Assembly: GCA_035353175.1 (NCBI GenBank)
Contig: DAOPZC010000009.1
Location: 27,304 to 91,303, forward strand
Source of the DNA: Kiritimatiellia bacterium
GTDB taxonomy: Bacteria > Verrucomicrobiota > Kiritimatiellia > RFP12 > UBA1067
DNA: 64,000 nt
Direction of reading: 5' to 3'
The notes beneath the pieces are model-generated. The model saw nothing but the letters and a program-made list of their open reading frames with translations, had not been told where the DNA came from and made no database searches. A program made the position numbers and the translations under genes. Within the stretch, counting starts at the first letter, position 1; each line of letters begins with the position of its first letter. This document shows positions 4,952-46,179 of this stretch, piece after piece.

Positions 4952-4988
4952 GGGCGCGCCCGCATTCCGCCCCGACGGAAAGAGCAAG

Positions 4989-6486: not shown

Positions 6487-6575
6487 GGGGTAAAGCGCGG
6501 TCAGTTCATTGGGCGTCCGTTTTTCATGCGTGGGGCGCGGGCGGAAAGTCTGTGCGGCGGTGTGGGAGCCTTGGG

Positions 6576-6980: not shown

Positions 6981-6983
6981 GGT

Positions 6984-7691
6984 TCACTCTCCCGGTTGGC
7001 CGGCGCGCGCGTTCAGGCTGACGCCGGTGTTGTAGGCGAGCTCGAAGTGGTGGATGGCCTGTTCAAGCTCCGTGGTGCGGCGCTTGAGCTGCGAGACCAG
7101 GAAGTTGAAGGGAAAGAGGCAGGCGATGGCCACGATCAGGCCGGCGGCGGTGGTGATCAGCGCCTCGGCGATGCCCGCCGTGGCGCCGGCCGGATTTTCC
7201 ATGCCCGCCGCGTTGAGCATGTTGAAGGTGTTGATGATGCCGGTGACCGTGCCGAGAATGCCGAGCATGGGGGCGACGGTGATCGAGGTGTCGAGGACCG
7301 AGAGCCCTCGGCGCAGGTGGTCCAGCTCCAGCTGCGACGCGGCCTCCAGCGTCTCTTGGAAGCCCGCCGTGCGGTTCTCGAGAGCCTGCGCGAAAACGCG
7401 GCAGACCGGCGAATCGGCCTGTTTTGCGGCGGCGAGGGCTTCGTCGAATTTGCCCTCGCGGGTGAGCCCGATGAGCGCCTTCTGTTTGTGGCGGAAATAG
7501 AAATTGGCGGTGTTGTACTTCCAGAAGGCGAAGAGGCGCTCGAACGTCACGGCGAGCCCCATGAACGAGCAGACCAGGATCGGCCACATGACCGGCCCGC
7601 CGCGGTCGAAGAGCGCGAAGGCCGCGTCGAAAAGGCCCTGCGGCGCCGCGGGGGCGGCCTGGGCGAGAAAAGAAGAGCAAAACATCATCAA
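6984..7691 (-). CDS. exbB: MotA/TolQ/ExbB-family proton channel
   Basis: 235 aa. Conserved core APMLGILGTVTGIINTF...ALITTAAGLIVAI. First gene of an exbB-exbD-tonB operon on the minus strand. Confidence 0.85.
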   Translation of the reverse strand: MMMFCSSFLAQAAPAAPQGLFDAAFALFDRGGPVMWPILVCSFMGLAVTFERLFAFWKYNTANFYFRHKQKALIGLTREGKFDEALAAAKQADSPVCRVFAQALENRTAGFQETLEAASQLELDHLRRGLSVLDTSITVAPMLGILGTVTGIINTFNMLNAAGMENPAGATAGIAEALITTAAGLIVAIACLFPFNFLVSQLKRRTTELEQAIHHFELAYNTGVSLNARAGQPGE

Positions 7692-7759
7692 CCTCCAGCG
7701 GCGCGCGGCGTTTCCGCACGCTCGCTCCTGTCATCAAACGCCGGCGTCCCGGCCGCGGT

Positions 7760-28700: not shown

Positions 28701-28907
28701 GAGGCGCTCCTGCGGTCGGTTGAAAAAGAAACCCAGGCGGCGTTGCTGCCGGGGGCGGGCGGCGGCGGCTTCATTTTCATGATCGCCAAGAGCGCGGCGG
28801 CGGCGGAGCGCATACGCCGTGTGTTCGGCGCGAATCCGCCGAACCCGCACGCGCGTTTCTTCGACTTCGACGTGGACCGTCAGGGGCTGAAGGTCACGGT
28901 GCTGTAG
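25701..28907 (+). CDS. fkp: Bifunctional L-fucokinase/fucose-1-phosphate guanylyltransferase (Fkp-like) with low-complexity in-frame insertions
   Basis: 1068 aa. N-terminal fucokinase/nucleotidyltransferase-type domain. C-terminal GHMP-kinase domain with motif PKGSGMGTSSILGAAV and the C-terminal GHMP region (LPGAGGGGFIFM). The architecture matches Bacteroides Fkp. About 120 aa of extra inserted repeats are present (MGNGQPAIGNGQWAMGNG; GGRKTEDGGRKAEDGGRKTEDG). Confidence 0.75.
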   Translation: MEMTPFDILVLTAANEAQAEGYRAQLAWRQANGLLDPATRALVITDPGGRRVGSLGATLNVLAELAREPGGRKTEDGGGTKKAGLKLRASDLEAAFRNKRILICHSGGDSRRTPAYAAQGKVFTPVPTAAANGAPLALFDLILQTVSNLPAPAQGHVLVTSGDVLLTFDHASVDFALPGITGVAYFGPVERGSHHGVYVPEAFRGNPLRTECVPVVDFLQKPTEDEARACGAVDPFGHVAVDTGLVSFDPATCARLLAFAGKGLLAEIVGGSCPALDLYEELTMAVAPRFDEARYLERFVTGRGRDAAHGRRMRAFYRALRGVPFRVNIVPYCEFFHIGSSRELLSGFAGLSRTAQEYRFANGSGACVTRGGETGRAFIFNARIECPLKTGAALIEGVHAAGCKALTLEGENILTGLPPEASGEIRLPKGVGLVCLPIGNAAWAAVAYGLDDDFKTPFGGAKPCRFLNAPIEAWLARSGVPASRLWRGDEQDGLWRARLWRVGTLDEVLAEAVAMGNGQPAIGNGQWAMGNGLAGWGARRYGIAELLPRVNHERLLAVRQEIRRQVNLMSVAERLLGDDALPAATVCGEIRNRDESARVVRQLAALLEGEALDKPLLRARVLRLMAMIGQRDGGRKTEDGGRKAEDGGRKTEDGWRERPARGEAAGRRSPVVDPQAAAFAAVAEAVAVSFEPCGQPRAAAILHDQVVWVTTPVRIDFAGGWSDTPPICTERGGAVLNAAVTLNGLYPVQVMAKLNTAGCIRLSSIDLGERKEIRTTEELLDHRDPHDWAALAKAALILAGIGPSRTEEPLAQWLKALGGGLDLTIFSSLPKGSGMGTSSILGAAVIACLDRVLGVPFNTDRLVRMASILEQRMCTGGGWQDQVGGIMPGVKLIRTEPGPDQTVSLRWTVFDMSEGSELKRRCLLYFTGQKRMARNILQNVVSGYLARDPLVLQTVEDLKEAATAAKEALDAQDIDGFARGVARYWELKKRIDPGSTNAPIEALLRSVEKETQAALLPGAGGGGFIFMIAKSAAAAERIRRVFGANPPNPHARFFDFDVDRQGLKVTVL

Positions 28908-28923: not shown

Positions 28924-30300
<1,377 letters not shown>

Positions 30301-30477
30301 AGTGCGTTCACTATAATGCATGCCTACGGTTGTAGGCAATCGCAAAGATGGAAGGTTTTTACAAAATGACCTTGCCCGAGCGGTTTCCCTCATGATACGA
30401 TAAAAAAATGACGGAGTTGTGTCTTTCAGGTGTATTCCCGAATGGAAAAACGCTCGGAGAACGGCTCAAAAGAGATG

Positions 30478-31008
30478 TGTATGAACGGTTTTTTAAGCAG
30501 TAAACAGGAAAAGTGCTTGAAAAAAGCGATCGTAACAGCGGTTTACGGGTCCGCTGTGTCAATGGTATTTGTTTGTCTTCTGGCGGCGGGCTGCGGGAAG
30601 CGCACGGAAGGCGAGGCGACGGAGACGACCGGCTCCGGTTTGGCGCGTGTGGTGACCAACCGGATGCAGGATGCCTCCTACCGCAAGGCGCTCGACCAGA
30701 ACCGGCAGGAGCAGAGTCAGAAAGCTTTCGAGCGCAATGAGATCGTCAAGAAAATGGAGGCCTGCATCGAGCGGGCGCGGGCGACGTTGCCGGCGGGCGC
30801 GGATGACAAGGCCGTGAAGGCCGTCTTGGAAAAAGATCCCGAGTGGAAGGCGCTGGAGGCGAAGAACGCGCAAGCGAGCGGCGAGATCGAAAAAACCTTG
30901 GCGAAGGCCCGGGAAACGATCCGTCAGCGCATGCAGGCCGAGGCGCGGGACGTGAAGGCAGTGGCCGAGGGCCGGGCCGTTGCGGTGGAACCGCCGTCAG
31001 CAAAGTAA
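30478..31008 (+). CDS. Small lipoprotein of unknown function (coiled-coil, Lys/Glu/Ala-rich)
   Basis: Lipobox LLAAGC|GK after a hydrophobic h-region. Start is ambiguous (ORF begins at 30430; ATGs at 30478 and 30484). Lower GC at the 5' end. Confidence 0.55.
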   Translation, partial: CMNGFLSSKQEKCLKKAIVTAVYGSAVSMVFVCLLAAGCGKRTEGEATETTGSGLARVVTNRMQDASYRKALDQNRQEQSQKAFERNEIVKKMEACIERARATLPAGADDKAVKAVLEKDPEWKALEAKNAQASGEIEKTLAKARETIRQRMQAEARDVKAVAEGRAVAVEPPSAK

Positions 31009-31062: not shown

Positions 31063-34000
31063 ATGAAAACGAGCTGCATGAAGAACGTATTGAAAAAGCT
31101 GGCTTTCCCCTTGGTGGCCTGCGGGTTCCTTTGGACAGGGGCTTCGGCGTGGGCGCAGTTGGGCGACATCGTGAGCATCTTCTCCGATCAGCCGAACTTC
31201 ACCTATTCGGCCTCCGGAGACCAGGTCGAGATCAAGATCAAGCTGGACGGCGGCATCCTCAAAAATGGCATTTTTTCTAAACGTGCGGTGACCGGCACCA
31301 CCCCGTCGGAGTATTTCCCCCCCGAGCTCCGGCTGGTCGTGAACGGCAAGGCGGCGTGGGCGCCTTTGTCCCGGCTCAATGCGTACCAGGTGGCCGCGGG
31401 CAATCCGCACTACCGCACGGAAGCGGTCTTCACGTATACGATCAAGCCGGGCGACATGGCCACCCCCCTGCGCATTTTCGGTTCGGCCGGCAGTTCGGGC
31501 AGCGGCGCCGCCTTCCAGTTCTATATGAACAACTGGGAGATCTACAACACCGTCACCACCAGCAACGCGGTGTGGCGTCTGAATATGGCCAACACCGGTC
31601 TGGAGCCGGGGGTGACCGACTATTACGACGTGGATTTCTCCGGCGCGAACGTGAAGCTGCGCACGCTGGAGTTCGATGAGGTCCGGTCGCCCATCACCGT
31701 CGCGGCGACGGAGTCGACCTCGTGGCGCGTGTCTTCCGTGAACCCTGTGGCCCCCTCCAATGTGGTCGACTGCGTGGTCTGGACGCCCAGCAATGTCGTG
31801 CAGATCGGCACCGTCGCGGGCCAGTCGGCGCTGCCCGTCAATATCCCCGGCGGCGCCACGTATGTGGACTTCCCCGTCAAGGGCCTCGTGGAAGGCGAGA
31901 CCGAAATCTACCTGCAGCGCGCGCAGGACTACGCCAATAACGCGACCGTCGGCGTCACCAACTACATCAAGCGCAAGATCACGGTGACGACCGCCCCCGC
32001 GCCGACCGTCTCCATCCGGATGACTTCGTCCGGCACGGATTCGGCGACGCTGAGCGAGTCGGCCGCCGCCAACACCGGCGCGCTGATCGTCGACATCTCG
32101 CAGGCGTTCTCGAACGACGTCTATGTGAGCCTGAGCACGCTGCCGTCGGGGCAGAGCAACCTGACGTTCGCCGCGGCGCTGCCGGTGGTGACGATCCCGG
32201 CGGGCTCGACCTCTTCCTCCGAGGTCCGCTTCAGCGTGCCGGACGGCACGGTCCTGAGCGAAAGCGCGGGAATCGAGATCGTTCCCTCCGTGACCAACAC
32301 GGCGGCGCAGTCCTTCTATTCGCGCATGAAGTCCGGCTATGTCTATGTCGCGAACGTCACCCCGGAAATCGTGAGCCCGCAGACGAACGAAACGTTCACG
32401 GTGTCGCAGAACACGGCGTATCCCTTCACCTGGTCGGTCCGCGACGTGAATGCGGACAAGCTGTCGGGCATGACCGTGACATGGAAGTTCGGGACGGATC
32501 CCGCCACGAACGTGACCGGCGCCACCGGCACCATCCTGCACACCTTCCCCATTACGCCGGCGGCAAAAGTGTATAAAGTCGAGATCACGGCGACGGACAA
32601 GGACGGCGACCAGTCGGAGACGACCGCGATCTACGTGACGGCGACGCCGCCCACGCCGAGCCCGAGCGTGCGCGTCATTCCTTCCGCCTCCTATTTTGAA
32701 ACCACGACCAACAATACGGGATCTCTGATGGTGGTGTTGTCCGAAGCCTATTCGGAGAACGTGTATGTCAAGCTCTCGACCGATCCCGCAGTGCAGAACA
32801 ACCTCATCCTTTCGACAACGAACGCGATCCGCATTCTGAAGGGCGAGCTGACGAACGCGATCCCGGTCACGTTCAGCGTCCCCGACGGAACGGTCCTGAG
32901 CGAGCAGTACGGGATCGAGATTGTCCCGACGGTGACGAACGCCAGCGCGGCGGCCTATTATACCGATCTCGTGTCGGCCCTCGTGACGGTCAAGAACAAC
33001 CGCCCGGTCGTGGGCAGCCCGGTGGCCGGCAGCTCGGTCGGCCCGATTCCCGCGACGGTGCCCTACACCTTCAACTACACGGTGAAGGATGTCACGGCGG
33101 ATCTCTCTACGATGATCGTGAACTGGCGCTTCACCGAAGGTGGTCCGATCTATACGGTGACCGGCGCGGTCGGCTCGGTTGCCTACACCTATATGTCGCA
33201 GGGCACCAATACGGTGTGGATGCAGGCCGTGGATAAGGACGGCGGGGTCTCCGACGAGGTGCAGTTCACGGTGTATGTCGGCCAGGCTCCGGGCGTCGAG
33301 ATCATCACGCCGGCCGGCGAACTCTCCGAAACGGCCAATGCGGGCATCCCCGATCAGATTTATGTGCGGTTGACGACGCCGTACACCTATGCGACGACGG
33401 TGACGCTGAACGTCACGCCCGCGAACAGCACGGGGAACGGCACCTTGACGCTGAGCGCCTACACGGTCGTGATTCCGGCGGGCCAGATCGAGGCGAAGAT
33501 CAACATCAGCAATGTGAAGGACGGCACCGATATCTCGCGCAACACCGGCTTCATGATAACCCCCGTGGTCGGCGCGCAGAACAACGCCGACGCGTTCTTC
33601 TCAAACAACATGCCCGGCTATGTGTATATCCGCAACGAAAAGCCGGAGATCAACACCCCTGAAGATACGGACACGACCGCCGAGACGGTGGTGTACACGG
33701 TCGCGCAGGGCACCGCTTGGACGTACTACTGGGACATCACCGATGTGGCGCTGGATTCGACCTCGACGGTCGGCACCGGCATGAAGGTGACGTGGTACTT
33801 CGGCGACGGCGAAGTCTCGCCCGCGCTGTGGGGCCGGTCGGGCTCCGTGTCGCATACCTACACGGCGATCGGCGACCTGATCGTGCGCATGGTGGCGGAG
33901 GACAAAGACGGCGGACGCGACCAGGCCTCCTTCAAGATCCGCGTGGCGCCGGCGAAAGCCGTCAACGTGACGCCGGTCGGACCGGTCCGTGCGGGAGCCT

Positions 34001-37000
34001 ACGCCGGTGCCCAGGGGTTGGGCAACGGAATCATCCGCTCGTATGACGCGGTCAACCGCGCCATCGAACAGAACGTCTTCTTCTTCAAGTACAACCCCAG
34101 CGTCACCTCGGCCGATCTGGTGGCCGAGCCCTATAAGACCTCCAAGAACGTGGCGGGCGACATCGTCCCGTACACGCTGACGAACTACATCACGCGGGTC
34201 AGCGGCATTCCGAACGTGTCGGCGTTCGGCACTCCGAACGGCAGCGTCGAGTTTGACAGCTTCTTCTATGTGTGGGTCGGCGCCGATCAAGGGCTGCCCG
34301 CCGAAGCGGTGGTGCCTCTCGCGAGCCCTGTGACGTCCGTCACGCTGCCCGCCTCCACCACGGACGCCGCCACCACGGGATCGTCGTCGTCCAGCGTCGA
34401 GATCCGTCTGGTGCAGGCGGTCTTCAGCCGCGAGTATCGCGCGACCGACAACATCGGCGACATCAACAACGACGGCATTCCCGATCCGCTGGCGATCCTG
34501 TACGGGTTCCCCACGCTCTTGGGAACCGACCTCACGTCGGCGAAAGACTACAATGCCGACCTCGATTACCTGCCGGGTGCGGCCAGCGACGGCGGCGGGC
34601 TCATCGGCGGGAACCTGACCACGTGGGCGGCCGTCGGCCGTCCCTTCACCGCGTTCCTCGAGATCCGCGGCTACCATGAGGGCCTGAACAACAAGGACTA
34701 CGGCTCCGATGACGACTTCGGCCCCGGCGAAGAGGAAGTCACGGCGTATGACATGAGCCCGGAGCGTCCCACCGATCCGACCAAGCTCGATACCGACGGC
34801 GACGGATTCCCGGACGGCTGGGAATACTATTTCTGGTATAACGCGGTGGTGAACCATCTGACCGGCCGCCGCTACAACCCGAACGACATCGCCTCGGGGC
34901 AGCTCCTGGACTGGCCGGAAATCTACGCCAAGTTCGATCCGATCACGCCGGCCACCGACGCGTTCGATACACGCGACTTGGATAACGACGGCATCACGGA
35001 CTACGAAGAGTTGGTTTCGGGAACCAACCCGATCAACTGGGACAGCGATAACGACGGCATGTGCGACGGCTGGGAGATTCTGCGCGGGCTCAACCCGACC
35101 GAGCCGCGCGACGCCACCGATGCGGGCATGAACAACCTCGACGGCGACTATATGGCCTATGGCACGGTGCAGGGCGACTACGTGCCGGTCGTGCTGGATG
35201 GCGCCACGAACTATTATCTGCGCGTCTCGACCGTCAACGACCCCCTGCCCGCTTACTACACCTGGTTCAACTACGGCGCCTCCAATGCCCCCATCGCGCT
35301 CGGCCGTCCCGTCGATCTGCCGGTCGGCGCGGCGGTGGACGAGGAGGGGGTGACGAGCCTCGACGTGTTGGTCCTGCACTTCCAGGCGTACCAGGTGCTG
35401 GGCTTTGATCCGCGCACGGCGTGGACGCGGTCGGTGAATCCGGCCCAGTTCCCGAACCGGTTCATGAGCTATTTGGCGGGCAACGCCCCGAACACCAAGG
35501 CGTTCACGACGCTGGACGAGTATCTGCTGATGAAGTTCATGTCCGAGAACCGCGTGAACGGCGCAGGCGCCACGATCGGTGCCGGCAACGCGGAAAACAA
35601 GACGCGGGAGTGGAGCGCATTCTCCACAAACCCGCTGACGCCCGACAGCGACGCGAACGCCACGAAGGACGACGGCATGCCGGACGGCTGGGAGCTGTAT
35701 GTGGCGTGCGCTCCGGGATCGCGTGTCTTCGCCATCTCCCCGTGGAATCCCGATGACGGCCGCGACAACAACGACGAGAACATCAACCCCGTGCTGAACA
35801 ACCGCCGCGAATTCGCGGGCACGGACTCGTGCGCGGCCTACACCAATGCGGCGCTCTACGCCTCCGGCCCCGGACGCGTCACGATCGTCCGTCCCGGCAC
35901 CGATACGGCGTGGCTCAACAAATTCTGGCCGACCGATCCGTGGAACGCGGATACGGATGGCGATGCGCTGGAAGACGGCGTCGAGTCCGCCACCCAAGTG
36001 CCGGTGGCCTTCCTGATGGACGGCAGCTGGTGGACGGTCGGCGATACGACGCTGCAGTATGGTCTCGGCGTCGATAACGGCAAGGGCTGTATCCGCGGCG
36101 CGGGCCTCAACCCCTGCACGATGGATACCGACTGGGATGCGCTGACCGACTCGTGGGAGTATGACCACGCGGGCACCAACGCGCTCTCCGGCGTGACCGG
36201 CAGGCGATTCATTGACGACGGCATGGACGGCACGCACGGTCCGGCGAACGAAACGGCCTATTCGATCGGCGACGCCTACACGGCGTATGACATGTATGTC
36301 ACGGGCAGCGGGGCCGTGAACCGCAACATGGACTATGACCGTGACGGCCTGGAGAACTATCAGGAATACTGGGTCCAGGCGGTGCGTCATTTCCGCTACG
36401 ATTATACTGCGGACTTTGCCGCCATGGACGGCTCAGACGGCCCGTCGGTGTTCTTCACGCCGATCACGAACCCGTGGGACCTCGCGGTGTATTCCTATTG
36501 GTGGCTGCCGTTCGCGGTGACCCAGGAGATGCTGCTGCCCGTGGGCGCCGGCTATTTTGTCTCGACCGATCCGCGTGAGCCGGATACCGATTTCGACGGC
36601 ATGGACGACTACTACGAGATGTTCCATGGCCTGAACCCGATCTTGGGCGATACGACCCACGCGTACGGCGACCGGGTCGCGAGGGCCTATCTGAACACCA
36701 TCGACTATGGATCCGATGATCCCGGCAACGACTGGGGCACCGGCCTGCCGATGGACTTCCAGCAATATCCTTGGCTCGCGGGCATGGACGAGGCGGATCC
36801 CGACGCGGACGGGCTGCGGAACCTCGAGGAGCAGATCCAGCCGGATACGGCGGCGGCGTCTTGCTCGAACACCGACCCGACGCCGATGTGGATGACCGAC
36901 CTCAGCAGCACGAACAGCCTGACCGCGCGCTTCTACGGCTGGGGCGGCGAGTTCTTCTGGCCCGGAGCCCTGACCCTGGACGAGGATTACAAGATGTACT

Positions 37001-40000
37001 CGTTCGAGATGAACGAAGGCTACGATACCGATAACGACGGCGTCTCCGACAAGGCCGAGAAAGTCCAGGCCGCGACGGCATTGTCCGACCCGCAGGATCA
37101 GGACGATCCGCTGCGCCGTCAGGCGATGTGGTTCGATGGCGTGCAGTCTGCCGCCCAGACGCTGACGGGCTACTCTTACAACGAGTGGGCGTTCCGCAGC
37201 TTCACGGTTGAATTGTGGGTCCGCCCCGAGGACGTGAGCCGCGACCAGGTGCTGATCGAGCGCCCGATCGTATACGGAGCGAGCGATCTGAGCACGACGA
37301 GCGATGTGGTGCGCGTCAACTTCCGGCTCGGCATTGCGGCGGACGGCCGCGTTTACGGCCTGTTCCAAAACGCCGGCGGACAAGATGCCCAGACGGGCGT
37401 CGTCGAGGCGTACGGGCGCAAGTTGAGCGCAGGGGTGTGGTGGCATATCGCCGCGAAGATGGACGGTTCGGCGGGCCTGTTCAAGCTGTTCGTGAACGGC
37501 AACACCGAGCTTTCGGTGCCGACCACCCAGATCCCGGCCAACGGCGTGCTGAACATCCTGTCGGATCCCGACAGCGCGCAGTATCCCACGCCGTATCGGA
37601 TCACGTTGAATCCGGGCTTGGTCGTCTTGGGCGCCTCGAATCTGAATCCCTTCCCCAGCGAGCCGGCCTCGTGGGGCAACTACACCAACTTCTATGCCGG
37701 TTATATCGACGAGGTCCGCGTATGGGACGGCGCGCGCACCGATAACGAAATCCTCGAAGGCTACACGAAGCGGTTCACCCGCGACGATGTGGACTTGAAC
37801 CGCGAAGAGATCCAGGCGGCCTTGGCCGAAGGCGGATCGCGCGTCGCGGGTTCTGCCGTGTCGCTGCCGGCCGAGCTGATCTATCACTATACGTTCGATA
37901 ACCTCTATAGCTCGGACGTGACGAACACCGTCACCCGTGTCCCGCGCGGATTCAACTACTGGACTGCGGCGACGAACCGTCCTTCGGGCTATCTGGTCGG
38001 CTGGTGGTCCGAGCTCGCGACGCATAGCCAGGTTTACAGCGACTACGGCTATGTGCCGTGGATCGAGAACAGCGTCGAGCATCTCCCGATGACGAACGGG
38101 GTGGTGCGGAACTCCGTCTACTGGTCGAACGTCTTGGCCGGCGAGATCCCGACGGATCCCAGCGCGCACGGCTTGACCCAGTACAGCTTCCCGAACACCG
38201 GCAATCCGTATGGCCTGAGGTACAACACCAGCCTGCAAGGATTCTCGACCGAAAGCGTCGGAGAAAAGATCGGCAGCGACCTGTTGCCGTTGGGCAACGC
38301 GTGGGCCAAGCAGATCTCGGAGATGTGGGACGACGGCACGCCCAGCGGCGTCTGGGCCGAGACGGGCACGGACGAAGATGCGGACGGCTTGGCCGACTGG
38401 TGGGAAAATCTGCACGGCCTGGATCCGGCCAGCAGCGCGGGCGCCAACGGCTGGTATGGTGACGCGGACGGCGACGGCATCATCAACGGCGAAGAGTATC
38501 TGCGCGACATCGCCAACGGCTGGCGTGACGGCGACACGATCGTTTCCGGCCCGACGGGTCTGGTGCAGACGGCGGACGTGGATAATGACGGCCTGCCCGA
38601 CTGGTGGGAAAACATCTTCAATCTCAAGACCAATGACGGCGGCGGCGACAACGGCGCGCTGGGCGATCCCGATCTGGACGGGCTCAGCAATTTCGCCGAG
38701 TATCTGCTGGCGGAAGAACTGGCCTTCAATCCCGCTCTGCGGCCGAACCAGTTCCGGTCGAGCGCGGAACAGAAGGTGTCGGACTACTTCCTGAAAGAGG
38801 GCAAGCTCTATTACGGCCAGATGATGGCTGACCACGACTTCATGGAAGATGATTGGGAGGGGACGTTCGCCCAGAAATATGTCAGCCGGTTCGTCTACGA
38901 CCCGCACCTTGACAACGACGACGACGGGTGGTCGAACTGGTCCGAGTGCCGTTACTCCAAGTCGGCGGTGAACGTGCTGGCGGATTCCGTCATGACGACC
39001 GAAGCGCTTGGCAACATGAAGTACGAGTTCCCGATTCCCTTGATCGAGACCACGCTCCGTTACGGCGGCGTGCAGAGTGACGGGAACATCATCCTGAACG
39101 CCTATTCTTCGGCCGAGATGGACGGTCTGCCCGACGCGGTGTTCAAGATGCCGTTCGGCAAAAACACGACGGCCTCCGCCAAGACACTGGCTCTCGGTTA
39201 CTGGGAAAACCGTCTGGCGACGGGCGTGATGAGCCCCGGCTCGATCCAGCCCGGAACCATCAGCTTCAAATTCACCGACATGTGGACCGGCATCTCCTCC
39301 GGGACGGGCTTCGACTTCGACGGCATCTTGTACGGCGGGTCGGTGACGGGCAACATGCGTAAGGTCGGCACGGTGAACTACCTGACGGGCGAGTTCACGT
39401 TCGACATGCGCGAATACGAAGGGACCATTATTCTGCTCTCGGACGAGATCGAGTCGCGCGAAGATTACATCGACTGCGAGATCTCGTACATCGAGATGAG
39501 CTACTCCGTCAAGCTGGTTGACGGATGGCCGAAGAAGCTCTACCTCTCGCGCGCCGACACCGGCGCGATCCGCGAGGGTCTGAACTATTTGTTTGCCTTC
39601 GTGGACTTGGACAACAACGGCATTTGGAATGCGGGTGAGCCGTGCGGCGTGTCGGATGGCAACGGTGTCGATATCGGGTATGACCGTGTCGAGCTCGATC
39701 TCGAGCTGACCGACTATACGTCCGGCTATCTGCGCATGTCGCTGAGCAGCGGGCGACGTTCGGAAGACGTCTACTTCGGCTACGGCCAGGCGGGCGGCGG
39801 TCTCTCCGGTGGCCTCGCGAACCGTGTCCGTGTCCAGCGCAAGTCCGTGGACGGCAAGGCGGCCAAGAAGGTGGTGTTCGACAAGGTGATCGACTCCGAC
39901 CGCACCTATGTCCATGAGGGCGACCTGTTCGACCAGGGCTTGCTGGCTTTGGATTGGGGCATGTCGGACGTCTCGACCTCGTGGGACCGGACCACCGTGG

Positions 40001-41466
40001 TGTACGAGGTGTTCACGGGTGACCGTGCGGAGGCTGCGCTGACCAACAATGCGGTGGCGCTCTTCACGAACACGTTTGATGTCGCGCAGGCGAAAGCGGT
40101 GGCCACGGCTCCGATCAACGGCGCGTATGTGTACTCCGCCCGCCCGACGTTCAAGTGGACGGCTCCGGACGGATATCCGGCCTTCGCGATCGAAATCAAG
40201 AAGAACTCGTCCACCGGACTGACGGTCTACCAGTCGGGCGCGTTGCAGGTGCCGCCCCGGAATAACCTGGGCGAGTATGTCTGGGAGGCTCCGATCTATG
40301 CGGGGTCCCGCCTGCCCTACGGCACGAACAACGTGTTTGAAGTCAACAAGGTGTATGCGTGGCGCGTGATCGCGCTGAACGCCAAGTTCGCGAGCACCGC
40401 CGGCACGTGGTCGGACTGGAGGCTGTTCCGCCTCGACGTGAACACCCCGATGGCGTCTTCGGGATACGGGGCGGTCCGCGCCCGCGTCAAGTACTTCGGT
40501 CCTGCGGCCGACTTGTCCAACAAGATCAGGGTGCAGGCGTACCGCAACGCCGCCTTCGCGGGCGAGCCCGAGGCGGAGGTCTCGCTGACGGATGTGAACT
40601 CGCTGACGTCGGCGGTGACGCCCGTCGTGAACGCCCAGCTGAAAGGCCTGGCGGCGAGCGACACGGCCGGCAGCTACTATGTCCGCGCCTACATCGACCA
40701 CAACCAAAACAGCAAGCGCGACGTGTGGGAGTCGTGGGGTTATGCCTGCTACTACGGTGTGGCCGGCGATGCCTACGTGCCGCGGCCTGTGCAGGTGGCG
40801 TACGCGACGGATATTCCCGTGGTGGACATTGTGATCGAGGACGCCGACTCCGATCAGGACTGGTTCCCGGATGCTTGGGAGTATGAGCAGAACTCGTCCT
40901 TCCCCGATTTCCTGTCGCGCACGGGACCGGCGACCGGAACCTCGGGCATGGCGGAAGTCAATCCCACCTTGAGCGCCGTGGGCCTCAGCATGACCACGCT
41001 CTTCACGACGTTGGCTTCGGGCACAACGGATAAGGATGGCGACGGATTGGGCGATCTCGCCGAGCTGCTCTTGGGCACGGATGCCGCGTCCAGCTCGACG
41101 GCGAAGGATGGTTACGCCGACGGCGACAAGGTCGCATTGGGACTCTCGCCTGAGGATACGTTGCGCCTGAACGTCACGGGCCTCAACCTGGGTGCTGATC
41201 TGGTGCCGGTGGTCGAGTGGACGGTGGAAGTGCAGAAAGCGGACGGCACGGACAGCAACACGCTGGGCCTGTTGTCCTCGACGGCGCCGGGGAGCACGGT
41301 CTCCTACCAGGTGCTCTACACGCCGTCCCTCGAGAACCCGAATTGGCAACCCGTCCAGAGCGGTACGGTGTCGCTGTCTGGCGTGCAGAGTCTGCAGGAT
41401 AAGATCACTGCTGTCACTCAGATCGATCCGTCCCTGGGCTTCTTCCGTGTGAAGCTGCTTAAATAG
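31063..41466 (+). CDS. Giant secreted adhesin-like protein (3467 aa): at least four tandem roughly 300-aa beta-sandwich/PKD-like modules, thrombospondin-type-3-like Ca-binding repeats, LamG domain, conserved C-terminal domain
   Basis: Signal peptide (LAFPLVACGFLWTGASAWA|QLG). Strong RBS acaggagaatacgcATG. The motif FSVPDGTVLSE..GIEIVP.VTN recurs in successive modules. Many DxDxDG Ca-binding motifs (DTDGDGFPDGWE, DLDNDGITDYEE, DSDNDGMCDGWE, DADGDGIINGEE). LamG-like region (WHIAAKMDGSAGLFKLFVNGN). Confidence 0.85.
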   Translation: MKTSCMKNVLKKLAFPLVACGFLWTGASAWAQLGDIVSIFSDQPNFTYSASGDQVEIKIKLDGGILKNGIFSKRAVTGTTPSEYFPPELRLVVNGKAAWAPLSRLNAYQVAAGNPHYRTEAVFTYTIKPGDMATPLRIFGSAGSSGSGAAFQFYMNNWEIYNTVTTSNAVWRLNMANTGLEPGVTDYYDVDFSGANVKLRTLEFDEVRSPITVAATESTSWRVSSVNPVAPSNVVDCVVWTPSNVVQIGTVAGQSALPVNIPGGATYVDFPVKGLVEGETEIYLQRAQDYANNATVGVTNYIKRKITVTTAPAPTVSIRMTSSGTDSATLSESAAANTGALIVDISQAFSNDVYVSLSTLPSGQSNLTFAAALPVVTIPAGSTSSSEVRFSVPDGTVLSESAGIEIVPSVTNTAAQSFYSRMKSGYVYVANVTPEIVSPQTNETFTVSQNTAYPFTWSVRDVNADKLSGMTVTWKFGTDPATNVTGATGTILHTFPITPAAKVYKVEITATDKDGDQSETTAIYVTATPPTPSPSVRVIPSASYFETTTNNTGSLMVVLSEAYSENVYVKLSTDPAVQNNLILSTTNAIRILKGELTNAIPVTFSVPDGTVLSEQYGIEIVPTVTNASAAAYYTDLVSALVTVKNNRPVVGSPVAGSSVGPIPATVPYTFNYTVKDVTADLSTMIVNWRFTEGGPIYTVTGAVGSVAYTYMSQGTNTVWMQAVDKDGGVSDEVQFTVYVGQAPGVEIITPAGELSETANAGIPDQIYVRLTTPYTYATTVTLNVTPANSTGNGTLTLSAYTVVIPAGQIEAKINISNVKDGTDISRNTGFMITPVVGAQNNADAFFSNNMPGYVYIRNEKPEINTPEDTDTTAETVVYTVAQGTAWTYYWDITDVALDSTSTVGTGMKVTWYFGDGEVSPALWGRSGSVSHTYTAIGDLIVRMVAEDKDGGRDQASFKIRVAPAKAVNVTPVGPVRAGAYAGAQGLGNGIIRSYDAVNRAIEQNVFFFKYNPSVTSADLVAEPYKTSKNVAGDIVPYTLTNYITRVSGIPNVSAFGTPNGSVEFDSFFYVWVGADQGLPAEAVVPLASPVTSVTLPASTTDAATTGSSSSSVEIRLVQAVFSREYRATDNIGDINNDGIPDPLAILYGFPTLLGTDLTSAKDYNADLDYLPGAASDGGGLIGGNLTTWAAVGRPFTAFLEIRGYHEGLNNKDYGSDDDFGPGEEEVTAYDMSPERPTDPTKLDTDGDGFPDGWEYYFWYNAVVNHLTGRRYNPNDIASGQLLDWPEIYAKFDPITPATDAFDTRDLDNDGITDYEELVSGTNPINWDSDNDGMCDGWEILRGLNPTEPRDATDAGMNNLDGDYMAYGTVQGDYVPVVLDGATNYYLRVSTVNDPLPAYYTWFNYGASNAPIALGRPVDLPVGAAVDEEGVTSLDVLVLHFQAYQVLGFDPRTAWTRSVNPAQFPNRFMSYLAGNAPNTKAFTTLDEYLLMKFMSENRVNGAGATIGAGNAENKTREWSAFSTNPLTPDSDANATKDDGMPDGWELYVACAPGSRVFAISPWNPDDGRDNNDENINPVLNNRREFAGTDSCAAYTNAALYASGPGRVTIVRPGTDTAWLNKFWPTDPWNADTDGDALEDGVESATQVPVAFLMDGSWWTVGDTTLQYGLGVDNGKGCIRGAGLNPCTMDTDWDALTDSWEYDHAGTNALSGVTGRRFIDDGMDGTHGPANETAYSIGDAYTAYDMYVTGSGAVNRNMDYDRDGLENYQEYWVQAVRHFRYDYTADFAAMDGSDGPSVFFTPITNPWDLAVYSYWWLPFAVTQEMLLPVGAGYFVSTDPREPDTDFDGMDDYYEMFHGLNPILGDTTHAYGDRVARAYLNTIDYGSDDPGNDWGTGLPMDFQQYPWLAGMDEADPDADGLRNLEEQIQPDTAAASCSNTDPTPMWMTDLSSTNSLTARFYGWGGEFFWPGALTLDEDYKMYSFEMNEGYDTDNDGVSDKAEKVQAATALSDPQDQDDPLRRQAMWFDGVQSAAQTLTGYSYNEWAFRSFTVELWVRPEDVSRDQVLIERPIVYGASDLSTTSDVVRVNFRLGIAADGRVYGLFQNAGGQDAQTGVVEAYGRKLSAGVWWHIAAKMDGSAGLFKLFVNGNTELSVPTTQIPANGVLNILSDPDSAQYPTPYRITLNPGLVVLGASNLNPFPSEPASWGNYTNFYAGYIDEVRVWDGARTDNEILEGYTKRFTRDDVDLNREEIQAALAEGGSRVAGSAVSLPAELIYHYTFDNLYSSDVTNTVTRVPRGFNYWTAATNRPSGYLVGWWSELATHSQVYSDYGYVPWIENSVEHLPMTNGVVRNSVYWSNVLAGEIPTDPSAHGLTQYSFPNTGNPYGLRYNTSLQGFSTESVGEKIGSDLLPLGNAWAKQISEMWDDGTPSGVWAETGTDEDADGLADWWENLHGLDPASSAGANGWYGDADGDGIINGEEYLRDIANGWRDGDTIVSGPTGLVQTADVDNDGLPDWWENIFNLKTNDGGGDNGALGDPDLDGLSNFAEYLLAEELAFNPALRPNQFRSSAEQKVSDYFLKEGKLYYGQMMADHDFMEDDWEGTFAQKYVSRFVYDPHLDNDDDGWSNWSECRYSKSAVNVLADSVMTTEALGNMKYEFPIPLIETTLRYGGVQSDGNIILNAYSSAEMDGLPDAVFKMPFGKNTTASAKTLALGYWENRLATGVMSPGSIQPGTISFKFTDMWTGISSGTGFDFDGILYGGSVTGNMRKVGTVNYLTGEFTFDMREYEGTIILLSDEIESREDYIDCEISYIEMSYSVKLVDGWPKKLYLSRADTGAIREGLNYLFAFVDLDNNGIWNAGEPCGVSDGNGVDIGYDRVELDLELTDYTSGYLRMSLSSGRRSEDVYFGYGQAGGGLSGGLANRVRVQRKSVDGKAAKKVVFDKVIDSDRTYVHEGDLFDQGLLALDWGMSDVSTSWDRTTVVYEVFTGDRAEAALTNNAVALFTNTFDVAQAKAVATAPINGAYVYSARPTFKWTAPDGYPAFAIEIKKNSSTGLTVYQSGALQVPPRNNLGEYVWEAPIYAGSRLPYGTNNVFEVNKVYAWRVIALNAKFASTAGTWSDWRLFRLDVNTPMASSGYGAVRARVKYFGPAADLSNKIRVQAYRNAAFAGEPEAEVSLTDVNSLTSAVTPVVNAQLKGLAASDTAGSYYVRAYIDHNQNSKRDVWESWGYACYYGVAGDAYVPRPVQVAYATDIPVVDIVIEDADSDQDWFPDAWEYEQNSSFPDFLSRTGPATGTSGMAEVNPTLSAVGLSMTTLFTTLASGTTDKDGDGLGDLAELLLGTDAASSSTAKDGYADGDKVALGLSPEDTLRLNVTGLNLGADLVPVVEWTVEVQKADGTDSNTLGLLSSTAPGSTVSYQVLYTPSLENPNWQPVQSGTVSLSGVQSLQDKITAVTQIDPSLGFFRVKLLK

Positions 41467-41628
41467 GAAACTAGATCAAGGTTGCGGTGAAGGACATGAA
41501 GATGGCGGACCGTTAAACGGGGTCTCTCTTAATGTCCTTCACCCGGACCTCATGCGGTCAAGGGCGATGGGGTCATGGAGGCGGAACCTGCTGGAGCGAA
41601 CCGTGAACAGGAGTTGAAGGTGCTGAGA

Positions 41629-44600
41629 ATGACACGGTTGATAGAACATCTGCATGGGCGTCTGGCGGTTGTGGCCTGGCTCTCTTTAGCGGCGTTGTCC
41701 GCTTCTGCTTTTCGCTCGGAGGAGCGGACGGACACACCGGGCGGAGCCTCGGGTGCGCGAGCGCTTCAAGCACCGGTCTCCCGCGATCGGACGGCAGCCC
41801 AGACACAGGCGGCTGAAGCGGCGCTTCAGGCCGGCTTTGAGATTGCGTGGCACGAACGGTTGGGAACGCCCTTGTCCGTACGGGCCGCGGATCTCGGCAA
41901 ACGGCAGGTGTTCTCTGGCGGCAAGGGTCTGACGCTCCGGAAAGGCGGCGCTTTTGCGGAAGATGCCGTGGCGGTGCTCGACAGCCTCTCGCCCCTCTAT
42001 GAAATCAAGGATGCGGCGGCCGAGTTCGCGCTCGAAAAGGTTCTGCCGGATGCCAAGGGCTTCCACCATGTCCGGCTGTCTCAGCGGTATGGCGGATTGC
42101 GCGTGGTCGGCGGCGGGCTGATCGTCCACTTCGACAACGCGGATGTCGCGTATGAGGTGAACGGGCAGTTCATTCCCGATATCGCGGTGTCGACCACGGC
42201 AACGGTGTCCGCGTCCGCGGCGATCAAGATCGCGCAGGCCAAGCAGAGCGAGGTCACGGGAAGCCAGGGCGAACTTGAGGCGCGTCCCGAGCTGGTGGTG
42301 TTTGCCCGAAACTCCGCGCCCCGGCTGGCCCATGAGCTGACGTTGCTCGTGCGTGAAAACCGGCAGGTGACGGGGCGCTGGCGCTACTGGGTGGACGCGC
42401 AGCAAGGGACGATCCTTTCTTATCATAATGACATCAAGCGGATCGATGCGCCGGCGCAGGGTGAGCTGGCGCCCGTGACGGGCAGCGTACTGCAGCGTGA
42501 GGGCGGCGCGGCCAAAGAGATCATCGGCTGGCGCGAGGAGACCGGCGACTATTACCTGTACAATACGAATCTGCACTGGTGCATCCTCAATGCGGCGGCG
42601 TCAGGGTGGAGCGACGCCGGCACCTACGCCTACCGCGCTACCAACGAATGGGGCACCTCGGACCGCGCGGAGATTTCGGCCGCAAACAATTTCGACCTGA
42701 TCCAGAAATATTTTCGCGACGTCCACGCGATCAACAGCTATGACGGAGAAGGCGCCGATGCGAACGTGTTTGTGCATCTCGGCAACAACTATGCCAACGC
42801 CTACTGGAACGGCGTCGCCATGTTTATCGGCGACGGCGACGGTAAGACGGCGGACAGCCTGGCCGTACTCGACGTGTGCGCCCACGAATATTCCCACGCG
42901 GTGACGGAGCGCGCCTGCAACCTCGTGTACGCTTACGAGTCGGGCGCGCTGAACGAATCCTTTTCCGACATCTTCGGCGTTTGCGTCGAGTTTCACGCCC
43001 AGGCGGATGACCGCACAAACTATCCCGCCGCCAGCCCCGGCAAGGCGGACTGGCTGATGGGCGAGGATTGTTGGCGTTCCTCGCCGGCCTTGCGCGATAT
43101 GCGGAATCCGGCCAACACCGTGACGGTCGGCGCGGGCGGCGAGCAGCCGACGCGATACAAAGGCACGTATTGGTATAGCGGGGCGGGGGATAACGGCGGC
43201 GTTCACCAGAACTCGGGCGTGCAGAATTTTTTCTTCTATCTGCTGTGTGAGGGCGGCTCCGGCACGAATGATTCCGTGTCTTTCGGGTACGATGTGACGG
43301 GCATCGGCATCACCAACGCCGAACAGGTGGCGTACCGGGCGCTGTCCGTTTACTTTACCGAGGACACCGACTATTACGGGGCGCGCCAAGCGTGGATTTC
43401 GGCCGCGTTGGATCTGAACAAGATGTGGGTCCTGAGCGTGCGGCAGGCTTGGAACGCCGTTTTGGGGCTGCCGCCGCCGCTGCCGCTTTCGATCGCTTCG
43501 CCCGGCACGTTGCCGACCGGACGGGTGGGTTCGACGTACAGCACCACGCTGCTGGCGGCCAACGGCCTTTCGCCGTATGTCTGGCAGCTGCAGCCGGAAG
43601 CGCCGCTGCAAGCGGGACTCACTTTCGACACTGCGACCGGCCGCATCTCGGGGTTGCCGGAAGCGGCGGGCGAGGTTTCCTTCGCGGCGATTGTGACGGA
43701 CCTGACCGGCGTGTCCGCCACCAACCAGTTCAGCCTGACGATTCTGCCGCCGTTCACCGCGCCGTTCCGCGAAACGTTCGAGTCCGGCGCCGGACAGTTG
43801 TCGAGCGGCTGGATGCAGGAGTTTGTCTCCAACGCGGTGCCGTGGACTTACGTGAACGGGAACGGTGAGACCGTCCGCAACCCGGCCGCGGCCCACAGAG
43901 GCACGAGCAACGCGTGTCTGCGGGTGACGCTCGCTTCGCAGAGCAATGGCAAGACGCTCCTGGTCTCTCCGCGCATCGTTTTCGCCGAGCCGTCAAGCCA
44001 TGCGCAGGTGAGCTTCTGGCACTACATGGCCGAGAAGGACAACATTTTCCAGGACGAACTCAGGGTTTATTACAAGACCGCGTACACGGGCGAGTGGCAA
44101 CCGCTGGCGACCTATACGCAGTCCGTCAACATCTGGACCCGCCGCACCGTGAGTTTGCCGGAGCCGAGCGCGACCTACTACATCGCGTTCGGTGGTTCGG
44201 CCAAACTCGGTTACGGCGTGCATGTCGATGACGTGGAGGTGGTGGACGCATATGTGCCGTTCGCCATCGTGGCGCCCGAGACACTGCCGAACGCGGAGTT
44301 GAGGGAGCCCTACAGCTTTGCTCTGTCTGCGCAGGGCGGCATTGAACCCTATACCTACGAGCTGGCCGGCGGCACGGCGTTGCCGGTCGGCCTGACGCTC
44401 GGCACGAACGGCGTGATCAGCGGCACCGCAACCAATGTGGCCGACCTCGGCGCCCACAGTTTCTCCGTGCTGCTGACGGACGGGCAGAGCAATGCCGTGA
44501 CCATGGCGTTCTCGCTGACGGTGGATTTGCCGCGCGTCGAGTTGTTTGTCGAGAACTTCGATAACGGCGGCGCGATGCCGAGCGATTGGAGCCAGGTATT

Positions 44601-46179
44601 TCTGACGAATGGCATCGCGTGGGCCTGCCGCGGCGGCGGCGGCAACGGCGACACCTTCAATCAGCCGACCAACGCCTATGATGGTCTTTATAACGCGGTG
44701 CTGTGGGCCGACAATTATTCCAACAATGTGTCCCGGCTTGTGTCCCCCGCGATCAACCTCGGGGCCGCGCCCGTGAATCTCCAGCTCGATTTCTGGCACT
44801 GCATGACCAAACTGGTGACCCAGCAGGACGAGCTGCGTGTCTACTATAAAACCTCGGCGTCCGGCGCATGGACACAGCTTGCAAGCTTTACCAGCAATGT
44901 GACGTCGTGGACGCGGCGGGTGCTGCCGTTGTCCGTTCCCGCCACCACCACGTTCTATTTGGCCTTTGAAGGAACCGCCCGCTTCGGTCAGGGCGTGTGC
45001 GTCGATGCGGTCCGGATCACGGACGCGTCGCTCGAACCGATCATCATGACCACGTCGCCCCTGCCGGACGGCACGGTCGGCAGCGATTACAGCCACACGC
45101 TGCAGGCGTTGGGCGGCGTCGCGCCCTACACGTGGGACCTGGTCTCTGGGGCTGTGCCCTCTGGACTGGTCTTCAGCGCCGGGGGGGTGTTGAGCGGCAT
45201 GCCGGAAGTCAAGGCGGACGTGACGCTGGGCGTGCGGGTGACGGATTCGGCCGGCTACGCGGCGACCCGTCTCTTGTCGCTCCACGTGTCGAATATCCAG
45301 CGCTTGCCGTACACGCAGACGTTCGAGGGACGGTCACAATTGCCGGCGGGGTGGTCGCAGGAAGGCAGCTCGGTGAATTGGACGATTTATAAGGGAAGCA
45401 GCTTGGGTGTTCCGGCGGTCGCGCACAGCGGCACCAACAATGCGCTTCTTGTGAAACTGAACAACACCACGTCCAGGACGAAGTTGGTGATGCCGACGCT
45501 GAACATGGGCGGCGTGACGAACGCGCAGCTTTCCTTCTGGCTCTGTATGGCCAAGAAGACCTATCAGGACGAATTGACTGTCTACTACAAAACCAACGCC
45601 GCCGACACGGCGTGGACCTCCATCACAAACTTCAACCAGTCGATCACGACGTGGACGAAGTTCGTGCTGGATCTGCCCAACGCGTCCCCAACCTATATCA
45701 TCGCTTTCGAAGGCGCAGTGAGGTTCGGCTACGGCGTTTGCGTCGACGACGTGTCTGTGACGGGCGATTATGCGGCGTCGGCGTATGACCTTTGGAAGGC
45801 CGATGTCTTCGGCACGGACGCGTTGAACGAGGCGATCGCCGGAGATTTGGCCGACCCGGACGACGATGGCATCGTGAACTGGCTCGAATTCGCCATGGCG
45901 CTGAATCCCTTGGTCAAGGATGCTGGGAGTGCGATGACGGGCGGCGTGACGGCCGGCTACTTGACGCTGTCGCACCGCGAGAACCCGGACGCTTCGGACA
46001 TCCTTTTCGAGGTGGAGGCGTGCAGCGACCTGACCTTACAGGACTGGACCACGGTGGATGTCACCGAGATGTTGCGCGAATACACCAACACGTGGTATTG
46101 GGTCACGACCCGCCACGACGTGCCGGTCACAAATGCGCCGCAGCGCTTCCTGCGGCTCAAGGTCACGATGCCCGAATGA
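41629..46179 (+). CDS. Secreted M4-family (thermolysin-like) zinc metalloprotease with Ig-like domains and three MAM-like domains
   Basis: Start taken at MTRLIEHL..., the signal peptide (the ORF begins at 41575). Zinc motif HEYSHAV plus downstream ESFSDIFG (HExxH...ExxxD of M4). A module of type ...QVSFWHYMA....QDELRVYYKT...W is repeated three times. C-terminal domain related to the C-terminus of the upstream giant protein. Confidence 0.8.
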   Translation: MTRLIEHLHGRLAVVAWLSLAALSASAFRSEERTDTPGGASGARALQAPVSRDRTAAQTQAAEAALQAGFEIAWHERLGTPLSVRAADLGKRQVFSGGKGLTLRKGGAFAEDAVAVLDSLSPLYEIKDAAAEFALEKVLPDAKGFHHVRLSQRYGGLRVVGGGLIVHFDNADVAYEVNGQFIPDIAVSTTATVSASAAIKIAQAKQSEVTGSQGELEARPELVVFARNSAPRLAHELTLLVRENRQVTGRWRYWVDAQQGTILSYHNDIKRIDAPAQGELAPVTGSVLQREGGAAKEIIGWREETGDYYLYNTNLHWCILNAAASGWSDAGTYAYRATNEWGTSDRAEISAANNFDLIQKYFRDVHAINSYDGEGADANVFVHLGNNYANAYWNGVAMFIGDGDGKTADSLAVLDVCAHEYSHAVTERACNLVYAYESGALNESFSDIFGVCVEFHAQADDRTNYPAASPGKADWLMGEDCWRSSPALRDMRNPANTVTVGAGGEQPTRYKGTYWYSGAGDNGGVHQNSGVQNFFFYLLCEGGSGTNDSVSFGYDVTGIGITNAEQVAYRALSVYFTEDTDYYGARQAWISAALDLNKMWVLSVRQAWNAVLGLPPPLPLSIASPGTLPTGRVGSTYSTTLLAANGLSPYVWQLQPEAPLQAGLTFDTATGRISGLPEAAGEVSFAAIVTDLTGVSATNQFSLTILPPFTAPFRETFESGAGQLSSGWMQEFVSNAVPWTYVNGNGETVRNPAAAHRGTSNACLRVTLASQSNGKTLLVSPRIVFAEPSSHAQVSFWHYMAEKDNIFQDELRVYYKTAYTGEWQPLATYTQSVNIWTRRTVSLPEPSATYYIAFGGSAKLGYGVHVDDVEVVDAYVPFAIVAPETLPNAELREPYSFALSAQGGIEPYTYELAGGTALPVGLTLGTNGVISGTATNVADLGAHSFSVLLTDGQSNAVTMAFSLTVDLPRVELFVENFDNGGAMPSDWSQVFLTNGIAWACRGGGGNGDTFNQPTNAYDGLYNAVLWADNYSNNVSRLVSPAINLGAAPVNLQLDFWHCMTKLVTQQDELRVYYKTSASGAWTQLASFTSNVTSWTRRVLPLSVPATTTFYLAFEGTARFGQGVCVDAVRITDASLEPIIMTTSPLPDGTVGSDYSHTLQALGGVAPYTWDLVSGAVPSGLVFSAGGVLSGMPEVKADVTLGVRVTDSAGYAATRLLSLHVSNIQRLPYTQTFEGRSQLPAGWSQEGSSVNWTIYKGSSLGVPAVAHSGTNNALLVKLNNTTSRTKLVMPTLNMGGVTNAQLSFWLCMAKKTYQDELTVYYKTNAADTAWTSITNFNQSITTWTKFVLDLPNASPTYIIAFEGAVRFGYGVCVDDVSVTGDYAASAYDLWKADVFGTDALNEAIAGDLADPDDDGIVNWLEFAMALNPLVKDAGSAMTGGVTAGYLTLSHRENPDASDILFEVEACSDLTLQDWTTVDVTEMLREYTNTWYWVTTRHDVPVTNAPQRFLRLKVTMPE

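Follow-up and report, generated by a model that had tools for sequence, protein, structure and literature searches.

A large C-terminal domain family common to a giant adhesin and an M4 protease of a Kiritimatiellia bacterium, and its plausible role as a tag on secreted proteins

Introduction

Verrucomicrobiota and Kiritimatiellia are major degraders of polysaccharides and proteins in guts, digesters and the sea, but little is understood of how they bring their very large enzymes and adhesins onto the outer membrane or through it. Here we analyse a stretch of 64,000 nucleotides (the window) from a Kiritimatiellia bacterium (NCBI GenBank assembly GCA_035353175.1, contig DAOPZC010000009.1, positions 27,304 to 91,303 of the forward strand) in which the gene for a giant adhesin is followed by the gene for an M4 metalloprotease. 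An earlier reading of the letters alone, made without database searches (the sequence-only reading), had proposed that the two proteins end in a related domain, a candidate sorting or anchoring module. Our results assign the protease tail to a very large domain family and provide good support for a divergent version of the same domain at the end of the adhesin.

Results

The adhesin-protease locus

The two genes are co-directional and the protease gene begins 108 bases 3' of the adhesin gene. Both products have a signal-peptide-like N-terminus. The features on which the analysis rests are the following.

31063-41466, + strand: giant adhesin gene (3467 aa), with signal peptide MKTSCMKNVLKKLAFPLVACGFLWTGASAWA, PKD, bacterial TSP3 repeats and LamG
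40996-41463, + strand: adhesin C-terminal module (last 156 aa), a divergent, longer version that is conserved in 24 other distinct adhesin-type tails
41029-41064, + strand: EF-hand/TSP3-like loop DKDGDGLGDLAE of the adhesin module, of the Ca type
41152-41463, + strand: beta part of the adhesin module, including VSYQVLYTPSLENPNW, which is in register with the family motif v-t-Y-x-V-E-a-s-x-d-L-x4-W
41437-41457, + strand: terminal strand GFFRVKL of the adhesin module, followed by LK and the stop
41575-46179, + strand: M4 (thermolysin-type) metalloprotease gene (1534 aa counted from the first ATG)
45766-46176, + strand: protease C-terminal module (last 137 aa), a canonical family member
45853-45888, + strand: EF-hand-like 12-residue loop DPDDDGIVNWLE of the protease module, with D1, D3, D5, G6, N9 and E12
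45934-46167, + strand: predicted six-strand immunoglobulin (Ig)-like beta-sandwich of the protease module, which holds an invariant Trp (DW, module residue 94)
46144-46164, + strand: terminal basic beta-strand RFLRLKV of the protease module, followed by TMPE and the stop

The protease consists of an FTP propeptide, Peptidase_M4, M4_C, three units of He_PIG plus MAM/choice-of-anchor J and, finally, the C-terminal module. In the longest open reading frame (ORF), an upstream ATG at 41575, which is the start used by public gene calls, lies 18 codons before the Met at 41629; the latter, which precedes the signal-peptide-like MTRLIEHLHGRLAVVAWLSLAALSASA, is likely the true start. Contigs of 90-104 kb in JGI metagenomes carry identical copies of the protease gene, as does an NCBI metagenome-assembled genome (MAG), and the closest named relatives are MAGs labelled Kiritimatiellia, Verrucomicrobia or 'Lentisphaeraceae'.

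When all six frames of the window were examined for ORFs of 150 aa or more, the adhesin and the protease were the only two with both of the motifs on which the proposed relationship was based, a D-x-D-x-D-G...E loop and an F-x-R-x-K-x strand. These motifs are indeed present in both tails, but the proposed spacing of about 90 aa does not apply to the adhesin, in which loop and strand are separated by ~135 aa as compared with 97 aa in the protease. In the adhesin, the start of the loop is at 41029 rather than near 41092, and the module has half a TSP3 repeat and an insertion of ~40 aa as additional elements.

The protease tail belongs to a very large family

A word-index homology search with the protease tail detected 4 close homologs only. 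A profile was built from these homologs and compared, using full HMMER, with 1.84 billion cluster representatives (50% identity), resulting in 10,619 matches at E<=1e-3, of which 1,700 have E<=1e-10 and 33 have E<=1e-30. As some matches arise only through TSP3-like repeats, the first of these numbers is an upper bound on true modules and 1,700 is the safer figure. A family alignment of 59 sequences of the canonical type was assembled, and the counts for anatomy and position given below are drawn from 134 full-length modules (from proteins P0001-P0154). A word-index search with the 59-sequence alignment found only 30 short 'hypothetical' proteins; the gene surroundings of two short module proteins (P0164 and P0156) were uninformative and their gene calls are likely fragmented. 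The protease tail is a full-length match to the family hidden Markov model (HMM; hmmsearch E 6.4e-48) that ends in R-F-x-R-L-x-V and a short tail, whereas the adhesin tail joins the family at the level of profile-profile comparison only.

The sequence-only reading had likened the module to none of the sorting signals it recognised, and searches of curated collections agree: neither the last 137 aa of the protease nor the last ~156 aa of the adhesin has a match at permissive thresholds (Pfam E<=10, NCBIfam E<=1), other than a subthreshold TSP3 signal in the adhesin, and a profile search of PDB sequences with the family found nothing, so that the module is covered by no family of Pfam, NCBIfam or the PDB sequences. 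The literature yielded no account of a domain like this from bacteria of the Planctomycetes-Verrucomicrobia-Chlamydiae (PVC) group, which is weak evidence as the coverage of journals was incomplete. Judged by these searches, the module is a distinct, very large and uncurated family, with thousands of clusters in Verrucomicrobiota/Kiritimatiellia-type bacteria.

The module is placed at the end of proteins

Of the 134 full-length matches, 126 reach to within 7 residues of the C-terminal end of the protein. Three of the 8 internal copies are in proteins for which HMMER detects a second, C-terminal copy, while inspection shows that 4 more are followed by a more divergent copy at the very end. Overall, of the 128 proteins that have a full module, 127 have a module as their last domain. 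The stop codon, too, lies at a constrained distance: in most members the stop is 2-3 residues past the V of R-F-x-R-L-K-V (4 in the window protease), and the C-terminal residue is Pro in 61 of 124. Two or three modules, either in tandem or split by an Ig-like domain, are found in P0013, P0052, P0069, P0080, P0100, P0107, P0135 and P0150, and modules are also repeated in P0032, P0033, P0037 and P0081; the last copy is always C-terminal.

Anatomy and predicted structure

The consensus of the 134 copies begins with Y-x2-W-x4-F ... I-S-G-D-x-A-D-P-D-G-D-G-[ILV]-x-N-L-L-E-Y-A-x-G-L-D-P, continues through Y-L-T-L-T-Y-R-x-N-K-x-A-x-D-[VI]-x-[FY]-x-V-E-x-[SC]-x-[DS]-L-x4-W ... W-x-V-T-V-R-D-x-V-P and ends in R-F-[ML]-R-L-[KRQ]-V-[TS]-[RK]-P-stop. 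With the 59-sequence alignment, AlphaFold2 produced a model of the protease module with a pLDDT of 95.9 and a pTM of 0.86 (a shallow alignment of 5 sequences gave an unusable model with a pLDDT of 47). The model has a long helix (residues 6-25), in which a Trp and a Phe are conserved; the 12-residue loop leads from it into a short exit helix (38-43), and six strands follow, such that an EF-hand-like helix-loop-helix is packed against a six-strand Ig-like sandwich. Foldseek comparison of this model with the PDB detected generic Ig-like domains only (best, 3f62_A, E 3.9e-4, TM 0.44); as all of the matches are Ig-like domains, the beta-sandwich is supported, and we regard the predicted fold as well supported.

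Both DPDDDGIVNWLE and DKDGDGLGDLAE have the features of an EF-hand loop, namely ligands at positions 1, 3 and 5, Glu12, Gly6 and flanking helices, the helices being taken from the protease model, and both window loops are of the Ca type. Of 122 family loops, 82 retain this pattern of ligands. Position 12 covaries with the ligands: E is found there in 75/75 loops with D/D/D at positions 1/3/5 and in 7/7 loops with D/E/D, while in 40/40 loops that have lost the Asp ligands at 1 and/or 3 (mostly [TSN]-P-A-x-D-G) it is K or R, counts that are not corrected for shared ancestry. The loop is probably a structural site for a cation, and where the Asp ligands are missing a lysine may stand in for Ca2+.

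Relationship between the adhesin and protease tails

A pairwise alignment, as suggested for checking the relationship, did not reveal it: the best BLASTP match between the two tails had an E value of 0.13, was out of register and was not significant. Profiles were therefore built for both sides. A word-index search with the adhesin tail found no matches; a metagenome scan with the last 600 aa of the adhesin, however, detected 14 ortholog loci with 36-56% identity, in all of which the tail is conserved. Two adhesin alignments were used, one of 12 ortholog tails and a larger one of 25 adhesin-type tails. The HMM-HMM comparison, the other check that had been suggested, was significant: hhalign of the 59-sequence family alignment with the 12 ortholog tails aligned 112 columns, which begin with the Ca loop and extend to the last strand, at a probability of 93.4% and an E value of 2.4e-7, and the family with the 25 adhesin-type tails gave 92% and 5.7e-7.

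It is possible to argue that the tails are not homologous and have in common a TSP3-type Ca loop and, by chance, a last strand that is hydrophobic and basic. The failure of BLASTP fits this explanation, as do the many TSP3-like loops inside the adhesin, the difference of ~40 residues in loop-to-strand spacing, and the comparison of the family profile with the single adhesin sequence, for which hhalign aligned the Ca loop only (30% probability); by direct hmmsearch, the single adhesin tail scored 11.8 bits against the family HMM. Against it, the profile-profile matches extend over ~110 columns, and the beta part alone, with the Ca loop removed, still gave 84% and an E value of 7.1e-6, as compared with E values of 0.07-0.11 and probabilities of <1% for control alignments of reversed adhesin sequences. 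Moreover, an HMM of the adhesin-type beta part matches the Y-x-V-x4-[SD]-L-x4-W element of many family members in register, the tail of one adhesin ortholog (L022) aligns to the family HMM over positions 26-132, and the distance from the last strand to the stop is the same. Hence, we consider non-homology highly unlikely. The proposal that these co-encoded secreted proteins have a homologous C-terminal module in common is upheld by the profiles, and it is well supported that their tails are two versions of one C-terminal domain family.

Carriers of the module and conservation of the gene pair

Among 40 full-length carriers there are 66 different Pfam families, nearly all of extracellular types, including He_PIG, RCC1 propellers, MAM, cadherin-like, PKD, Calx-beta and Big domains and M4 peptidases. 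When 74 proteins with a Met start and 450 aa or more were examined by a crude test, 41 had a signal-peptide-like N-terminus; many of the remainder are probably truncated or mis-started gene calls. The window protease has three choice-of-anchor J domains, and the module occupies its terminal slot. The term 'choice-of-anchor' was coined for surface proteins with one of several terminal sorting signals, as stated for the related A family (bioRxiv 10.1101/2023.03.06.531300).

A scan of genomes with a narrow protease-tail alignment retrieved 17 loci, all from close protease orthologs, and in 13 of the 17 an adhesin-type tail ends the ORF just upstream of the protease. The order is that of the window: a giant adhesin with the long module and then an M4/choice-of-anchor J protease with the canonical one. 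Such loci are found among L019-L034 (e.g., L022, 3-1007 and 1008-5414). By this comparison, the adhesin-protease pair is conserved across a clade of Kiritimatiellia-type bacteria, which suggests a functional pair in which, for example, the protease may process the adhesin or work beside it.

Other genes in the window

The first giant protein of the window (10752-17513, + strand, 2253 aa) has repeats of autotransporter-associated beta-strands (PATR), two PA14 domains and an L-type lectin-like region. The idea that it, too, ends in a similar strand was not borne out: by hhalign (0.07%, E 0.68) and hmmsearch (score -1.9), its tail (...TVQGTVIRIR) has no relationship to the module, nor does the protein end in a C-terminal anchor of any recognisable kind. 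The gene for a sigma-54-dependent activator that has an FHA domain at its N-terminus (28924-30393, - strand) is transcribed away from the adhesin-protease pair; no -24/-12 (sigma-54) promoter-like site was found upstream of the adhesin, and such matches in the window are fewer than expected by chance. A small ORF of 175 aa (30481-31008, + strand) precedes the adhesin, with 55 bases between its end and the adhesin start; its product combines a lipoprotein-like signal (...VCLLAAGC) with a body that is charged and probably helical. The product of 25701-28907 (+ strand) is a bifunctional fucose pyrophosphorylase/GHMP-kinase (fucokinase-type) with low-complexity inserts, GGRKTEDGG in two places and a GNGQ(P/W)A(I/M)GNG repeat. 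Finally, two MotA/ExbB-family genes, a TonB C-terminal-domain gene and a MacB-like ABC pair (FtsX/MacB_PCD permease and ATPase) are located at 40-849 (+), 5686-6987 (-), 6984-7730 (-) and 3725-5666 (+); nothing ties these energy-transducing envelope systems to the module.

Discussion

Our results show that a domain with no curated model is found at the end of a large number of proteins with diverse, mostly extracellular, domains. Being the last domain, a fixed distance to the stop codon, diverse passengers and many signal-peptide-like N-termini are the hallmarks of a sorting or anchoring tag, and this much of the function proposed by the sequence-only reading agrees with our observations; the dedicated machinery that the proposal implies, however, did not emerge, as no sortase, translocon or partner was found within the window. 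There are two further grounds for an involvement in targeting: type IX secretion system (T9SS) C-terminal domains (CTDs), too, are Ig-like sandwiches, placed at the very C-terminal end of a diverse range of cargo, and the protease is a choice-of-anchor protein. A sorting or anchoring role is thus plausible. The more specific proposal that the module is a common cell-surface address tag, acting in export or retention after passage through Sec, is one to which we assign a little less than an even chance.

Such a tag may act as follows. Carrier proteins would be exported by Sec through their N-terminal signal peptides, and the C-terminal module would then fold as a compact unit, with Ca2+ stabilising modules of the D-D-D...E type and a lysine probably taking the place of the ion in the other type. 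A component of the outer membrane or cell surface would recognise the sandwich and the free basic C-terminal strand, and the cargo would in consequence be exported or kept on the surface. For the adhesin-protease operon, such tagging would bring both products, the M4 protease and the giant adhesin, to one location.

Several observations weigh against the proposal of an address tag. Nothing within the window suggests a recognition machinery, a sortase or a binding partner, and the module has no sequence similarity to T9SS CTDs, PEP-CTERM or dockerins. P0109 is the one protein in which the module is followed by an unrelated tail of ~90 aa, and tandem copies occur in at least 8 proteins. No specific solved relative is present among the Foldseek PDB matches (TM <0.45), 12 of the best 150 family matches are due to TSP3-like repeats alone, and the membership of the adhesin rests on profile-profile statistics and not on a structure. 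The tandem copies are informative, as a pure cleavable signal is not expected to duplicate; they imply that the module is a folded domain that is able to stay inside the mature protein.

An alternative is that the module is a purely structural terminal domain, a stable Ig-like cap or folding nucleus that may shield long extracellular proteins of many domains from proteolysis at their C-terminus but has no part in targeting. A compact and well-folded model, a metal site that is kept or replaced by lysine as would be anticipated for a structural site, and the existence of tandem copies are consistent with such a cap, and the frequent C-terminal Pro could hinder carboxypeptidases. The lack of any machinery among our findings also fits. 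However, last place in 127/128 proteins is not what one would expect of a generic structural domain, nor is a near-invariant basic strand at a fixed distance from the stop, and the module sits in the slot where choice-of-anchor proteins usually carry sorting signals. We consider a purely structural role to be rather improbable.

A second possibility is that the module is a dockerin-like assembly module, which would bind non-covalently to a scaffold protein, a surface glycan or a copy of itself, rather than being an export signal, and would bring the protease, the adhesin and other enzymes together in a complex or matrix at the surface. The EF-hand-like loop and exit helix, together with a C-terminal location on many extracellular enzymes and binding domains, are in keeping with this possibility; tandem copies suit a binding module better than a cleaved signal, and a pair of differently tagged proteins in one conserved operon fits co-assembly. 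Set against these points are the absence of a dockerin family match, the presence of one Ca loop instead of a duplicated pair, and the loss of Ca ligands in about a third of modules; no cohesin-like partner is known or was seen. In addition, the rule that the stop follows 2-3 residues after the last strand is stricter than a binding domain would need, and the AlphaFold2 model, which is of high confidence, has the helices packed in cis against the sandwich. An assembly role therefore seems to us no more probable than a structural one.

A bolder form of the address-tag proposal is that the module marks cargo for an as yet undescribed pathway of Verrucomicrobiota/Kiritimatiellia, one of outer-membrane export or surface attachment, and is a functional PVC counterpart of the T9SS CTD that is read via the sandwich and the free basic strand. 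We regard this form as doubtful, although slightly less so than the structural and assembly roles; if it were true, then thousands of large extracellular enzymes and adhesins would be substrates of such a pathway. A strictly terminal and abundant domain without a curated model on thousands of extracellular proteins provides a concrete handle on these questions: an HMM of the module would define a candidate surface or secreted proteome, and phylogenetic profiling could reveal the machinery. Even if the role is structural or in binding only, the module deserves a family model because it is unannotated on very many proteins, while the Asp/Glu-versus-Lys covariation of the loop may exemplify natural replacement of structural Ca2+ by lysine.

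Among known systems, the N-terminal third of the module resembles the bacterial TSP3 repeat (PF18884, TSP3_bac; CglD/MtsD-type), with W-x4-F ... D-x-D-x-D-G-x-x-N/D-x-x-E ... G-x-[DN]-P. TSP3 repeats differ in being internal and tandem, with neither an attached sandwich nor the terminal-strand rule. The adhesin tail scored 8.5 bits with TSP3_bac (E 2.4; gathering threshold, 25 bits) and 2 of the 59 members matched at E<=0.01; the adhesin has a true TSP3_bac repeat elsewhere (32.8 bits). The adhesin also contains an internal copy of the first third of the module alone (38599-38715, + strand; DWWENIF...GDPDLDGLSNFAEYLLAE), which has the W-x4-F helix and an EF-type loop with no sandwich after them and aligns to positions 7-45 of the family HMM. 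As this copy lacks a sandwich, the module looks like a terminal TSP3-like unit that has become fused to one.

Dockerin type I (PF00404, of cellulosomes) is similar in having a Ca-binding EF-hand-like loop plus helix, a C-terminal position on many extracellular enzymes and many paralogous carriers. The module differs in its one loop, its added beta-sandwich, its lack of a known cohesin partner and the third of its members without Ca ligands. As dockerin type I has two tandem 22-residue Ca-binding loop-helix segments and the protease module has one loop and no Pfam match, this assignment was rejected. Membership of the autotransporters was also rejected.

PEP-CTERM/exosortase, LPXTG and other -CTERM signals are likewise C-terminal tags on diverse surface proteins; such signals are present in Verrucomicrobia (PMC1569441), and short C-terminal sorting signals of this kind are the usual partners of choice-of-anchor domains. 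The window tails, in contrast, are hydrophilic folded domains in which neither a PEP or LPXTG motif nor a transmembrane helix at the C-terminus is present. PEP-CTERM (TIGR02595), which combines a P-E-P motif, a transmembrane helix and a tail rich in Arg, was rejected for the window tails, ...NAPQRFLRLKVTMPE and ...PSLGFFRVKLLK, which lack a hydrophobic helix and have no NCBIfam match.

The closest functional analogy is with the type A CTD of the T9SS (PF18962/TIGR04183; RgpB and PorZ structures, PMC4804311, PMC11285876). There are differences: the modelled module has six strands and an N-terminal EF-hand-like part, whereas the T9SS CTD is a 3+4 seven-strand sandwich; tandem copies of the module occur; and the hosts are Verrucomicrobiota/Kiritimatiellia-type bacteria, while the T9SS is confined to Bacteroidota/FCB (Fibrobacteres-Chlorobi-Bacteroidetes; PMC12398890). 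Membership of the T9SS CTD families (PF18962, TIGR04183 and TIGR04131) was rejected, as neither window tail matches them (Pfam E<=10, NCBIfam E<=1) and 0 of the 59 members do so at E<=0.01; no T9SS CTD is among the 50 best Foldseek PDB matches, and none of the T9SS machinery genes PorK/L/M/N, SprA/Sov and PorU/V was found within the window. The two domains nevertheless have in common an Ig-like beta-sandwich of ~80-100 aa, diverse Sec-exported cargo, a location at the extreme C-terminus and a basic last strand, and the model, the Foldseek matches and the terminal position all place the module with Ig-like sandwiches that end Sec-exported cargo. By analogy with this system, it is plausible that the module is a C-terminal folded tag on secreted proteins.

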